Source: Candidatus Saccharibacteria bacterium CG10_big_fil_rev_8_21_14_0_10_47_8 (GTDB lineage Bacteria > Patescibacteriota > Saccharimonadia > Saccharimonadales > UBA10212). From it: a DNA stretch of 35,561 bases. The notes below the pieces were generated by a model. It did no database searches. It was not told the origin of the DNA and saw nothing but the letters and a program-made list of their open reading frames with translations. The translations under genes were made by a program, and so were the position numbers. Location: contig PFEG01000041.1 of NCBI GenBank assembly GCA_002793885.1, positions 1 to 35,561 of the forward strand, read 5' to 3'. Positions 9,571-15,464 of this stretch are shown in pieces. Position 1 is the first letter of the stretch, and each line of letters starts with the position of its first letter.

Positions 9571-10578
9571 ATGACCAAGAAAGAAGAACAGATCACAGAA
9601 ACCGAAATAAAAGAAACAAAGCAAGCAAGTGTCAAAGCCGTTTCAAAAAAGCTTGCAGTTAAAAAGCTAAAGACCGACAAGGTTGTCGAAATACAGGCCA
9701 CCGAAGAGATTGTTGAGCAAACCGATGCGAAAGACACCGATAAACCATCGGAGCCTTTGGCAAAATCGGGTAAGCGAAGCGCCCAGGCTCTCGAAGAAGC
9801 CCAAGAGAAAAAAGCTAAAGAAACTCGCAAAGCCAAAAAAACAACAACTGAAAGTCAAGAAGCTAAAAAGTCCACAAAAAAGCCAACCCGCTCAAAGTTG
9901 GAACGGGCTGGTAAAAAATTCAGAGAAGCCGCCAAGCTGGTTGATAAGTCAAAAACTTACACCTTGGTTGAAGCCTTAGAATTAGCTACAAAGACCAGCC
10001 CAACAAAATTTGACGCGACTGTTGAGCTGCACATTAACTTAAATGTTGACCCCAAGCAGGCTGATCAAAATATCCGCGGTGTAGTGGCCCTGCCGGCTGG
10101 AACTGGTAAGCCTGTCCGCGTAGCGGTTCTGGCCGATGCGGACGACGCAGGTAAGGCTCAAAAGGCCGGGGCAGATATTGTCGGCAGCGATGAGCTGTTT
10201 CAACAGTTAGACAAAGAGAACATAAACTTTGATGTGCTAATAGCTACCCCCGCGTTAATGCAGCGATTGAGTAAATACGCCCGTTTGCTTGGGCCGCGCG
10301 GACTGATGCCCAATCCTAAAAGCGGAACAGTAACTGCCGATGTAGCAAAAGCCGTAGCCGAAGCCAAAGCCGGCCGGGTAGAATACCGGGTGGACAGCAA
10401 CGGCATAATCCACCTGGGTATTGGAAAGGTAGGCTTTGGGGCGAGTAAACTTACGCAAAACGCCGAGGCTGTAATAGCTAGCATACGGGCTGCTAAGCCG
10501 GCCGGTTTAAAGAGTACCTACATTAAGTCTCTGTACATCTCAAGCACCATGGGCCCTAGTATCAATACACAGCCCTAA
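9571..10578 (+). CDS. rplA: 50S ribosomal protein L1 with ~110-aa Lys/Glu-rich N-terminal extension
   Basis: From about residue 113, [26 protein letters not shown] matches the canonical L1 N-terminus. The first ~110 residues are low-complexity K/E/T-rich. A good SD (GGAAGGA) precedes ATG 9571. Confidence 0.9.
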
Positions 10579-10667: not shown

Positions 10668-11372
10668 ATGGCGGTATTTAGTAACAAGCAAATTCGTGAA
10701 GCCATTAAGAGTGGCCACATTATCTGCCACCCCCTGGTTGATAGCTATATTGCTGGCAGTAGTTTAGATGTGACACTCGGATACTGGTTCTACCGGACCG
10801 AAAGGACCGGCAGCAGCGGTTTCTATAACCCATTCGATAAAAGCGACGTCGATCGTTACTTTGACGGACCCTATAAAGCCGAAGCCCACGAAAAGTGGGC
10901 TAGCATTAACGGCCGAAAGCTATTTAAAGGTATACCCCCGAAGCATCCAATAATCGTGTTAAGGCCAGGCGAGAGAATTCTTGCCCATACCCATGAGTTC
11001 ATAGGTATAAAAGCTCCAGGCACTAGCACTATGCAAGCTCGTAGTACGTGGGGCCGCAGTGGTATATCGGCCTGTTTGGACGCCGGTTGGGGAGACCCCG
11101 GATATATTAACCGCTGGACAATGGAAATATATAATATGAACCAGCATGAGAGCGTGGCCATACCTGTTGGAGAACGAATTGCCCAGATGGTTTTTTACGA
11201 AACCGGCCCTGTCGAAGGCGAATACGCAAAACTAAGTGGCAAATACCAATCCGGGAGGGGTACCGAGCTTTCAAAAATAATTAAAACGTGGACTCCGGGG
11301 CAGCTGCTGCCGAGAGCATATAAAGATAGCCGAACAATGCCGTTGAAAATTAAAGGTTTAAAGATTCTGTAG
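10668..11372 (+). CDS. dcd: dCTP deaminase family protein (dUTPase superfamily)
   Basis: The N-terminus (NKQIREAIKSGHIICHP...GSSLDVTLG) and the ARSTWGRSGISACLDAGWGDPGY...EIYN core match Dcd/Dcd-Dut proteins. Confidence 0.8.
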   Translation: MAVFSNKQIREAIKSGHIICHPLVDSYIAGSSLDVTLGYWFYRTERTGSSGFYNPFDKSDVDRYFDGPYKAEAHEKWASINGRKLFKGIPPKHPIIVLRPGERILAHTHEFIGIKAPGTSTMQARSTWGRSGISACLDAGWGDPGYINRWTMEIYNMNQHESVAIPVGERIAQMVFYETGPVEGEYAKLSGKYQSGRGTELSKIIKTWTPGQLLPRAYKDSRTMPLKIKGLKIL

Positions 11373-11404: not shown

Positions 11405-13414
11405 ATGCAAAACCACCCCGGAATATTTATAGTCATAGAAGGCTCAGACGGGTCTGGTAAAACAACTCAATTTAACCTGCTGAAGGAGCGTCTTGAAGCA
11501 GTCGGTTATGATGTTGAAGTATTTAAATTTCCACAATATGACCAGGACTCTAGTCACTTTGTGCGTCGCTATTTGAATGGTGACTATGGCCCCGCCAGTG
11601 ATATTAATCCATATACAGCCTCCTTGTTTTACGCGCTAGATCGTTTTGAAGGAGCTCCACGGATTAGAAAAGCTCTTGAAGCAAGCAAGGTTGTACTGTC
11701 CGACAGGTATGCTGGCGCCAATATGGCTCACCAAGGGTCAAAATTCGCTAGTGCCGCCGAAAAACGTGGCTTTTTTATCTGGGCTGATAGCATGGAATTT
11801 CAATTACTGGGCATCCCGCGGCCGAATATAAATATATACCTGAGAGTACCGGCGGAAGTGTCGTTTGAGTTAATTGCAAAACGAGCAGCACGTAGCTACA
11901 CCGATAAAACACATGATGAGCATGAAGCCGATATCAATCATCTAAAACAAGCCGTTGAAACCTATGATTTACTGTGCCAGTTATTCCCCAAGGACTTCTA
12001 TGCCGTTGACTGTACCGATGGCGGACAAATGCTTAGTATTCCGACAATCAATGATCACATATGGCAGTATTTGCAGCCGTTTTTGAGTAGTATGCCTAAA
12101 CATCAACCGCACAGTAAAACAGTCAGACTGAGTGGCCCTCCAATCCCCGAGTCGCAGGACAATCGCGGACCCGGCATAACTAATTTTGATATTGACATCC
12201 AAGGCCAGCCGCTTAAGATTAAGTTGAATCATCTTAGCCTTTTAGCGGCCCGCAACTTGGTGGCAACCATGGGTATAGATGCCCAACTGAGGCTTAGTAA
12301 GAAAACAGCTGTTTACGAGCCCAAGCTCCATAGCCAGCAACTTCTCAAACGCTATAGGCAGATTATGGCAGAAACCATCGCGCGCCATCAATTAATGCTA
12401 AAGCTCTTACAAAAATCTAATAAAACTAACTCTAAGCCAACAGGCGTACTACTAGCAGCCACGCCTTTAGCATATTTTTGTGATGTTGACATCCGGGGTG
12501 AATCATCTGCACTACAAAAATTAATTATAGAAATGTCTGATTCGAAGTTAGCTGAGCTTGGTATGATAAGCCAGACTTTGTACTCTTCGGCACACAAAAA
12601 ACGCCCGAACGATTTTAAAACTCCAGAAATCCAAAAGTTAAAACAAGTGTTTAGCGATAACACTAACAACATGGTTGGCAAGTTACCCCAAACGTTGGGC
12701 AACCCCGATACTCTGCTCCGGCTTATCGCAGCCCGGCCGCGCAACGAGTTCGATCTAATAAATGATGCCGTCTACAAAAACAGTTCGCTCGACAGATCAG
12801 AAGTTTTATCGGCTATTGATAATCTTAGCTACGAACTAAAAACAGAATTACTAAAGCATTACTTCGAAGCGCTTGAATCTGAACCTAGTACGGCCCAAGC
12901 GATCAGCTACGAGTGGGAAATGCTAGCCAGCGGAGTAACCCTAGACTATCTCCTCCGAAACAGGCTGTTAGACCGGGTAATTTTGCAGTCGGCAACCCCA
13001 CGCTATGGCTACGAAGTCCCCGATTGGGTGAGCAGTGCCGGTATCGAGGAGCTATTTACTGAATGTTTCGATGATAGCCTGACTTTATTTAGCGAGTTGC
13101 AATCCGGCGGCCATGAAGAAGAAGCCCAGTACGCCGTGTTGATGGGCCACCGGCTTAGATGGCAGGTAACCATGTCGCTTAACAAAATTCTACGTTTTAA
13201 AGTCTTAACTGGTGACTCTAATTGTCCTGCCGAAGCCAAGTCCTTGTATGAATCCATGCAGCTGGCAATCAGCCAGACTCATCCGTTAATCGGAGAGTGG
13301 CTAATAGCCCAGGAAACCCCGAGACAACTCAGAACGGCTACTACACCGAAAGTTAATAGAGCCGCAAGGCACCAAAAAAAGCACCCTAAAAAACCGACCC
13401 AGGATAACTTGTAA
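11405..13414 (+). CDS. tmk: Thymidylate kinase fused to a ~410-aa tandem ThyX-like (flavin-dependent thymidylate synthase-like) region
   Basis: The N-terminal Tmk shows P-loop IVIEGSDGSGKTTQ and DRY motif (LSDRYAGANMAHQ). The C-terminal half shows ThyX-like blocks: YEWEMLASGVTLDYLLRNRLLDRVILQSATPRY matches the RHR...S.RY motif, and AQYAVLMGHRLRWQVTMSLNKILRF matches ARxxLPxxxxTxxxxTxNxRxLxxF. A more degenerate copy lies upstream (LKIKLNHLSLLAARNL; LLAATPLAYFCDVDIRGESSALQKLI). Confidence 0.75.
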   Translation: MQNHPGIFIVIEGSDGSGKTTQFNLLKERLEAVGYDVEVFKFPQYDQDSSHFVRRYLNGDYGPASDINPYTASLFYALDRFEGAPRIRKALEASKVVLSDRYAGANMAHQGSKFASAAEKRGFFIWADSMEFQLLGIPRPNINIYLRVPAEVSFELIAKRAARSYTDKTHDEHEADINHLKQAVETYDLLCQLFPKDFYAVDCTDGGQMLSIPTINDHIWQYLQPFLSSMPKHQPHSKTVRLSGPPIPESQDNRGPGITNFDIDIQGQPLKIKLNHLSLLAARNLVATMGIDAQLRLSKKTAVYEPKLHSQQLLKRYRQIMAETIARHQLMLKLLQKSNKTNSKPTGVLLAATPLAYFCDVDIRGESSALQKLIIEMSDSKLAELGMISQTLYSSAHKKRPNDFKTPEIQKLKQVFSDNTNNMVGKLPQTLGNPDTLLRLIAARPRNEFDLINDAVYKNSSLDRSEVLSAIDNLSYELKTELLKHYFEALESEPSTAQAISYEWEMLASGVTLDYLLRNRLLDRVILQSATPRYGYEVPDWVSSAGIEELFTECFDDSLTLFSELQSGGHEEEAQYAVLMGHRLRWQVTMSLNKILRFKVLTGDSNCPAEAKSLYESMQLAISQTHPLIGEWLIAQETPRQLRTATTPKVNRAARHQKKHPKKPTQDNL

Positions 13415-14951: not shown

Positions 14952-15464
14952 ATGGCAGAGTTACCTGACAAACAAATAAAGCGACTAAGGACTTTAATTG
15001 CTGAAGCAGAGACCAGTTTGGCCGCTGCTAAAGAGTTATTGGTGAGCCTGGTAGGCGACGATCCGGTCTTGCTCGACAAGGTGAAAGATACTTCTATGGG
15101 CAAGGTAATAGAAGGTGTTTTTGATGGCCAGACAATGGTTGGTTCCGATGGCAAAACCTATCCGGTGCCAGCCAATTACGCCAGCAAGTCAAAGCTCGTC
15201 CAGGGTGATATTTTAAAACTGACCATCGCTGATGATGGGGCGTTTATGTACAAGCAAATCGGCCCGATTCCCAGAAAACAGATCGTCGGCGTGCTTAACC
15301 AAAAAGACGGCCACTATTTCGTGGACACTAGCGATAAAAAATATCGGGTACTGCTGGCTAGCGTTACATACTTCAAGGCTAAACCCGGGGATCAGGTAAG
15401 CATAAACGTGCCGGAAGACGACAGCGTTAACGCCGAGTGGGCCGCCTTAGAAGCAGCCCTGTAG
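14952..15464 (+). CDS. Hypothetical protein (coiled-coil N-terminus, beta-rich C-terminus)
   Basis: 170-aa ORF with normal-looking codon usage, occupying the position where rpoB usually follows rplL. No recognised family. Confidence 0.6.
   Translation: MAELPDKQIKRLRTLIAEAETSLAAAKELLVSLVGDDPVLLDKVKDTSMGKVIEGVFDGQTMVGSDGKTYPVPANYASKSKLVQGDILKLTIADDGAFMYKQIGPIPRKQIVGVLNQKDGHYFVDTSDKKYRVLLASVTYFKAKPGDQVSINVPEDDSVNAEWAALEAAL

Follow-up and report, generated by a model that had tools for sequence, protein, structure and literature searches.

A thymidylate kinase joined to a degenerate tandem ThyX region in a Candidatus Saccharibacteria bacterium: a likely non-catalytic pseudoenzyme domain

The contig PFEG01000041.1 of Candidatus Saccharibacteria bacterium CG10_big_fil_rev_8_21_14_0_10_47_8 (assembly GCA_002793885.1), whose entire length of 35,561 nucleotides is referred to here as the window, encodes a protein of 669 amino acids (aa) in which a thymidylate kinase (Tmk) is joined to a C-terminal region derived from the flavin-dependent thymidylate synthase ThyX (FDTS). 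The gene is preceded by rplA and dcd and followed by rplJ-rplL. The dcd product is the supplier of the dUMP/dUTP branch, and the dcd-tmk pair is syntenic in at least 30 related loci. A first-pass annotation had proposed the combination of Tmk with a ThyX-derived region, and both domains were indeed recognized by Pfam, with a ThyX assignment of the C-terminal part also by Foldseek. The features concerned are the following:

10668..11372, plus strand: dcd (dCTP deaminase-like; Pfam DCD PF22769, 112 bits), directly 5' of the tmk fusion
11405-13414, plus strand: tmk::ThyX-like open reading frame (ORF), 669 aa, a single ORF including the stop codon
11405..12079, plus strand: Tmk domain, intact, residues 1-225 (Pfam PF02223)
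12080..12214, plus strand: flexible linker, residues 226-270, with low predicted local distance difference test (pLDDT) scores and 1 invariant residue
12215..12694, plus strand: proximal ThyX-derived repeat, residues ~271-430, N-terminally truncated, motif lost
12695..13324, plus strand: distal ThyX-derived repeat, residues ~431-640, catalytically degenerate, core conserved
12956..12964, plus strand: RNR tripeptide at the RHR position (R518 N519 R520; CGA AAC AGG)
12995..13012, plus strand: TPRYGY, T531-Y536, equivalent of ThyX S88-x-R90-Y91
13127..13159, plus strand: Q575-Y-A-V-L-M-G-H-R-L-R585, the R147 segment (R->Q) followed by the GH[KR]xR motif
13325..13414, plus strand: disordered Lys/Arg-rich C-terminal tail, residues 641-669, and the stop codon

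The Tmk domain is intact. Pfam Thymidylate_kin (PF02223) matched residues 11-201 with 76.5 bits (cut-off 27), and the P-loop EGSDGSGKT and the DRY motif (SDRY) are legible in the sequence. Both NCBIfam dTMP kinase models scored under their cut-offs (120.5 bits with an equivalog cut-off of 193, and 69.2 bits with a cut-off of 83.25). The domain is 88% identical to that of the same-genus orthologue, and 66 of its 225 residues are invariant among 10 family orthologues. Judging from this conservation, the 669-aa protein is predicted to be a working thymidylate kinase converting dTMP to dTDP. In the full-length AlphaFold2 (AF2) model, the linker residues 234-254 have a pLDDT below 50.

A profile search with the C-terminal region through 1.84 billion proteins yielded 2,189 cluster representatives, 486 of them at E <1e-30, and three architectures could be recognized. 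These are a standalone tandem ThyX of ~526-610 aa; a long Tmk::tandem-ThyX fusion of ~730-800 aa, with two Thy1 stretches at 118-135 bits; and a short Tmk fusion of ~620-690 aa, as in the window, in which Pfam usually detects Tmk only. The only named member of the short type is labelled 'thymidylate kinase [Candidatus Saccharibacteria bacterium]'. Short and long fusions have in common the dcd-tmk::X gene order followed by rplJ-rplL.

In the window protein, Pfam Thy1 (PF02511) matched residues 472-627, covering the distal repeat only, at a marginal 27.4 bits (cut-off 24.8), and in most orthologues of the short fusion the score falls under the cut-off. An NCBIfam scan returned no ThyX model and nothing in the C-terminal part of the protein, single-sequence phmmer searches of the PDB with the C-terminal region and one standalone relative as queries gave no ThyX match, and a profile made from only the distal repeat of the short forms scarcely matched PDB ThyX (E 0.54). 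An AF2 model of residues 226-669, built with 14 homologues, had a pLDDT of 76 and a predicted TM-score (pTM) of 0.72. Compared with the PDB by Foldseek, its top 50 matches were all ThyX (probability 1.00, TM on target 0.59-0.68), including T. maritima 1O26 and PBCV-1 4FZB. The proximal half matched the proximal repeat of complete tandem ThyX with an hhalign probability of 98.6% (E 8e-16) and PDB ThyX with a weak profile match (E 0.01), and the complete tandem proteins matched M. tuberculosis (Mtb) ThyX at E 1e-8. Similarity of the C-terminal region to any other enzyme family was not found with Pfam, NCBIfam, phmmer or Foldseek. Taken together, the profile and model comparisons show a ThyX-related region with two ThyX-derived repeats in one chain.

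The relationship to ThyX anticipated by the first-pass annotation was therefore found by both the profile and the structure comparison (the 27.4-bit Thy1 match and the top 50 PDB matches), and its description of a pseudo-dimeric ThyX fused to Tmk agrees with the hhalign match to tandem ThyX, the Thy1 match and the ThyX fold. Its claim of two ThyX-like repeats holds in the sense that each half is homologous to the complete tandem ThyX. However, the two halves show no mutual similarity when their profiles are compared (hhalign probability 0.1%), and the proximal one is truncated, being without the first ~80-90 residues of the ThyX domain and without ~10 further residues, deleted exactly in the RHR...SxRY loop. 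Only two things reveal the repeat: the homology to the complete tandem ThyX, and the strand/helix order, which occurs twice in the full-length AF2 model.

For the catalytic residues, complete forms were mapped by HMMER alignments to M. tuberculosis ThyX, and motif tables were made for 139 representatives plus loci taken from genomes. R107/R90 of ThyX interacts with dUMP at the uracil as well as at the phosphate. R78/H79/R80, N163, R165 and H178 in the T. maritima (Tm) ThyX structures we take to be contacts to flavin adenine dinucleotide (FAD). S88, R90 and Y91 are catalytic and needed for methylene transfer, and R174 (Tm)/R199 (Mtb) activates dUMP (PMC8316439), which is contacted by R95, R107, R172 and R199 of the Mtb enzyme (PMC9571937). 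In complete tandem forms, the proximal repeat supplies Mtb S105, R107 and Y108 (STRY), R172 (R..LP) and R97; the distal repeat supplies H69 (RRHKPGR), R95-H96-R97 (RHR), N188/R190 (NAR), H194, R199 (ELR) and H203 (GH). By this mapping, the tandem ThyX has a composite active site, as expected with only two of the four pseudo-tetramer sites being live.

Compared with these complete relatives, the window protein has lost the equivalents of H53, H79, R147, N163, R165, R174 and H178 together with the whole proximal SxRY loop. Its proximal repeat reads ATM/gap/L..TP where the relatives have WGR/STRY/R..LP, so that the absence of the motif from this repeat (LLAARNLVATMG, residues 279-290), claimed in the first-pass annotation, is confirmed. 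The distal set, which in the complete relatives is RRHPGR/RHR/NAR/HELR/GHYR, reads gap/RNR/SLN/RVLT/CPAK. Here, the H53 segment is missing (gap/E), Q575 stands for R147, S591/N593 for N163/R165, T602 for R174, and P608 occupies the H178 column. In place of the dUMP arginines (Tm R147 and R174; Mtb R172 and R199), the distal repeat thus has Q575 and T602, and the proximal one has Leu. The ThyX motif RHR-x7-S-x-R-Y has become RNR-x10-T-P-R-Y in the distal repeat, and in the proximal repeat its loop is deleted. The distal repeat had been said to keep most of the ThyX signature on account of two strings (LLRNRLLDRVILQSATPRY, residues 516-534, and AQYAVLMGHRLRWQVTMSLNKILRF, residues 574-598), but of the canonical residues nothing is left beyond T531-P-R533-Y534 and the outer two Arg of RHR. 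By any known residue requirement, the alignments rule out that the ThyX part works as a flavin-dependent thymidylate synthase.

The replacement of the central His of RHR by Asn, another first-pass claim, was correctly read (CGA AAC AGG at 12956-12964). The Asn is not conserved in orthologues, where the tripeptide is EHR (same genus), EKR, SKG, EHH, ENS, KTA or SSS. An adaptive, conserved substitution was considered and rejected, as the tripeptide position is unconstrained; since it varies freely among orthologues, the Asn is attributable to drift. The whole catalytic set is lost in all 12 short fusions of the family, the window protein included. Among the long fusions, all 12 in the first locus table were catalytically complete (11 from sister families and G230 of the window's own family, f1); of five further ones, three were complete, G198 was nearly complete and G195 partly degenerate. 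The standalone forms were essentially complete in 7/7 cases from family f1 and in 10/10 sampled from other orders, with the His of the distal RRH segment changed to W or Y in six of the latter ten.

Many long (700-800 aa) Tmk fusions among the cluster representatives are partly degenerate, e.g., with RHR lost and NAR kept (P0012, P0015, P0022-P0025, P0029-P0031). Their motifs suggest that the fused ThyX has decayed repeatedly, and step by step, in more than one lineage group.

The 669-aa ORF is the sole Thy1 match in its own assembly (788 kb, 90.6% complete). A canonical thymidylate synthase elsewhere in the genome, a possibility raised by the first-pass annotation, does exist: contig 21 carries, at 1498-2912, an intact thyA (402.6 bits, catalytic Cys of PCH present) followed by folA, the gene for dihydrofolate reductase (DHFR). 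With thyA present and the catalytic residues lost, the short C-terminal region was rejected as the thymidylate synthase of this genome. The thyA-folA operon is not close to the dcd-tmk locus, to which thyA is adjacent in other Saccharimonadia (L016-L018, Southlakia).

Of the 49 genomes of family f1, 34 have ThyA and eight a complete tandem ThyX (seven standalone, one a long fusion), and ThyA is absent from all of these eight. The short fusion was found beside ThyA or beside a complete standalone tandem ThyX. The remaining seven genomes include G213 with a canonical single-domain ThyX (143 bits), and several of them are 76-86% complete. In G220 (L030, C1:236545-240909), rplA and dcd-tmk (short fusion) directly flank a complete standalone tandem thyX, which places the predicted active ThyX copy next to the dead one within a single dTTP module. 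In G212, a genome without ThyA, a 343-aa ORF (L039:1441-2472) adjoining a 219-aa P-loop kinase has weak Thy1 matches in swapped order (profile positions 60-186, then 13-57) and a GGHMSPLEH motif near the C-terminus. The ORF may encode a ThyX-like protein that is circularly permuted or of phage type.

In a sample of 201 genomes of the class, a ThyX-like protein was present in 68 and ThyA in 101, with both in only seven. In these seven, the ThyX-like protein was a short fusion (G000, G197), a complete long fusion (G185, G074) or a partly degenerate long fusion (G195), and two genomes (G089, G126) had ThyA fragments only. In the sister families, the same dcd-tmk locus harbours the longer, complete Tmk::ThyX fusion, and ThyA is mostly absent. 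Because of this pattern of co-occurrence, the classical exclusivity of ThyA and ThyX holds for the complete forms, and the short form is indifferent to it.

A long fusion and a ThyA sequence occur together in L012 (G185), L042 (G074), L043 (G195) and L044 (G089). The fusion of G195 reads ANR/PVKY/S..LP and HELH, and the ThyA fragment of G089 has an internal TGA. These four genomes may be snapshots of synthase displacement in both directions.

In a tree of the ThyX part, the short fusions form one clade (SH-aLRT 100), with end branches of 0.4-2.4 substitutions per site vs 0.16-0.35 in the long fusions. The standalone ThyX of family f1 nests in the standalone clade, apart from the family's own fusions. 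The tree was midpoint-rooted, and the long branches make the placement uncertain.

Despite the loss of catalytic residues, none of the 12 short-fusion orthologues examined has an interrupted reading frame, and 88 degenerate Tmk-fused representatives were counted (50% identity clusters, proteins of at least 500 aa). The nonsynonymous divergence (dN) from the same-genus orthologue was 0.075 in Tmk, 0.31 in the proximal and 0.25 in the distal repeat. The synonymous divergence (dS) was saturated even within the genus, so that a pairwise dN/dS ratio was not computable and only dN and the saturation were used. Among the 10 family orthologues, 26 of 210 distal residues are invariant, including P445/E448 (PRNE), Q528, P532, R533, G535, F555-D556-x-S558-L559 (CFDxSL), Y576, L579, G581, H582, R585 and H626-P627. 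These values indicate that the relic is still under selection, with a constraint weaker than that on Tmk.

Two motifs, TPR[YF]GY and LGH[KR]xR, are present in every Tmk-fused protein of the motif tables, complete or degenerate. In the standalone complete forms, the position of the first reads, among others, TPEL, TPWY, GIDY, STDY, DTSL or EPLL and that of the second QYCAYRK or QYGAFNR. Being conserved only in Tmk-carrying proteins, both motifs seem to be tied to Tmk and not to thymidylate synthesis. Moreover, the last 25 residues contain at least 32% K+R in 37 of the 88 degenerate fused representatives vs none of the 14 complete forms; the tail of the window protein (28% K+R, pLDDT ~30) is just under this threshold.

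The simplest history would start with an active Tmk::tandem-ThyX fusion in the ancestry. In an ancestor of the Saccharimonadia family, a second thymidylate synthase would then have been acquired (thyA-folA in the window's own genome, a standalone tandem ThyX in some relatives), making the fused ThyX redundant. Finally, the fused copy would have lost the flavin site, the dUMP-activating arginines and ~100 residues while evolving several-fold faster. The same locus in Southlakia epibionticum reads rplL-rplJ-hyp-tmk (654 nucleotides)-dcd-folA-thyA, and its dTTP genes are all non-essential by transposon sequencing (PMC10633639, Table S1). One locus is seen in three displacement states, in a presumed order: a complete Tmk::tandem-ThyX, a dead relic beside ThyA or standalone ThyX, and a plain Tmk with thyA-folA.

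From the ancestry, the residue loss, the co-occurrence with other synthases, the synteny with predicted active fusions and the constraint, we infer that the ThyX-derived C-terminal 440 residues are likely a pseudoenzyme domain, linked to Tmk and non-catalytic, rather than a channelling enzyme. The first-pass annotation had left the choice between an active channelling enzyme and a regulatory, inactive domain. The former is not sustained, with the FAD/dUMP residues nearly all lost and an intact thyA-folA in the genome; the latter gains from the same two observations and from the position of the short fusion beside another synthase in the family. An active channelling enzyme probably does exist in the sister families, in the form of the complete long Tmk::tandem-ThyX fusion. 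The distal core retains TPRYGY, Y..L.GH[KR].R, PRNE and CFDxSL as invariant elements, and a polybasic tail was gained. Since TPRY and GH[KR]xR are conserved only in Tmk-carrying proteins, the remnant most likely serves Tmk. The retained TPRY with the adjacent basic GH[KR]xR suggests a remnant nucleotide/phosphate-binding pocket, which could act in the sensing or hand-over of dUMP, dTMP or dTTP. The main alternative to a pocket would be an oligomerisation scaffold or docking surface, unless both roles are combined, and the polybasic tail possibly tethers the protein to nucleic acid. A more specific proposal, tentative and with the odds well against it, is that the distal pseudo-active site (TPRYGY and LGH[KR]xR) was recruited as a nucleotide-binding site feeding or allosterically controlling Tmk, with the tail tying dTDP synthesis to nucleic acid. 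If true, it would represent the conversion of a ThyX domain from a catalytic to a regulatory one, the recruited site being all that selection kept in the family.

Several observations weigh against a role of the relic in the service of Tmk or against its catalytic death. Tmk does not need the appendage, given that the corresponding locus of Southlakia epibionticum encodes a plain Tmk of 217 aa beside thyA-folA. The full-length AF2 model (pTM 0.52) shows no confident packing of Tmk on the ThyX relic. Slow decay would fit both the evolutionary rate of the C-terminal region, 3-4 times that of Tmk, and the near absence of sequence constraint on its proximal repeat, where only six residues out of 160 are invariant among the 10 family orthologues. 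The link of the motifs to Tmk may rest on very few independent events, since the standalone forms are one clade, and the mapping of the loop residues depends on the MAFFT and HMMER alignments. Besides, two genomes have a short fusion and no detected thymidylate synthase: G239 (92% complete) and G212, with only the odd ThyX-like ORF mentioned above. Some of these points would fit a neutral relic in slow decay, a region without any separate function that is on its way to the plain-Tmk state of Southlakia and persists only because a deletion harmless to Tmk is rare. The vanished catalytic residues, the ~100 deleted residues and the very long branches are likewise in its favour. However, neutral decay does not readily account for open frames in all 12 short fusions examined, for the 88 degenerate representatives, for a dN of only 0.25-0.31 where dS is saturated within a genus, for the invariant distal residues with TPRYGY and GH[KR]xR among them, or for a newly gained conserved feature such as the polybasic tail, and we regard it as unlikely.

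Two catalytic readings were also considered. A flavin-dependent thymidylate synthase that is still active through a remodelled site and channels dUMP to dTDP would be in line with the ThyX fold, with a Thy1 match just over the cut-off, with the preservation of R518, R520, T531, R533 and Y534, with the location in a dTTP-synthesis gene pair with dcd and with the complete Tmk fusions of sister families. Yet the seven lost residue equivalents and the lost proximal loop, the unconstrained RHR position among orthologues and the intact thyA-folA, along with the company of ThyA or complete ThyX that the short form keeps in the family, make this reading hardly credible. Somewhat less remote, although still improbable, is a neofunctionalised enzyme with a new, flavin-independent activity on a nucleotide or nucleic acid, exerted by an invariant cluster of H582, R583, R585, R533 and Y534. 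The invariant GH[KR]xR and TPRYGY, specific to fused forms, and the polybasic tail with its suggestion of a nucleic-acid partner would fit such an activity, but both motifs are already present in the catalytically complete long fusions and therefore predate the loss of thymidylate synthase activity, and the searches mentioned above found no similarity to other enzyme families. The non-catalytic, Tmk-linked domain is thus the reading that we prefer.

Two further ORFs of the window may be mentioned. The rplA (L1) ORF at 9571-10578 (335 aa counted from the first ATG) carries ~105 extra N-terminal residues, rich in Lys and Glu, in front of the point where L1 proteins usually start, and a 170-aa ORF at 14952-15464 lies directly 3' of rplL, ahead of large ORFs from 15642.

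Among known systems, canonical ThyX/FDTS (T. maritima TM0449, PDB 1O26; M. tuberculosis 3GWC) has the same fold, and its S-x-R-Y is kept as T-P-R-Y in the window protein. As opposed to the canonical single-domain homotetramer with four FAD/dUMP sites, the latter consists of two fused unequal repeats, has lost the equivalents of the RHR His, R147, N163, R165, R174 and H178, and is not the thymidylate synthase of its genome. The same two-repeat architecture, with direct homology, is found in a domain-duplicated ThyX that Valas and Bourne (2009, PMC3224940) remarked on in Chloroflexi and 'a few other species' and that is uncharacterised. Standalone tandem ThyX occurs in many Saccharimonadia, where it keeps the complete composite active site in genomes without ThyA, whereas the window protein keeps none of it. 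The long Tmk::tandem-ThyX fusions of sister families (same order) represent the orthologous locus, with the same Tmk and the same TPRYGY and LGH[KR]xR; they are complete and usually the only thymidylate synthase of their genome, in contrast to the window form, which is ~100 residues shorter, degenerate and provided with a polybasic tail. The plain Tmk of Southlakia epibionticum (SEML1_0409, 217 aa) is homologous to the Tmk domain and has the same neighbourhood (dcd, rplJ-rplL), but is without the C-terminal appendage and adjoined by thyA-folA.

In the literature library searched, no description of a Tmk-ThyX fusion or of a ThyX-derived pseudoenzyme was found, and a search on ThyX in bacteria of the candidate phyla radiation (CPR) gave nothing relevant beyond the 2009 remark on the duplicated ThyX. 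The complete Tmk::tandem-ThyX fusion is thus apparently undescribed and a candidate one-chain dUMP-to-dTDP enzyme, and the two motifs tracking the Tmk fusion offer a handle for testing the coupling of thymidylate synthesis to phosphorylation. Annotation is a problem as well: the label of such proteins is just 'thymidylate kinase', and a genome could be wrongly credited with ThyX on the strength of a marginal Thy1 match. Consecutive thymidylate enzymes in one chain are familiar from the protozoan bifunctional DHFR-thymidylate synthase (DHFR-TS), in which both halves are active and the folds are unrelated to the window protein. In pseudoenzyme domains in general, a dead catalytic domain is kept for a non-catalytic role. 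The region described here would be a pseudoenzyme derived from ThyX and, as such, an addition to the little that is known about this fold.

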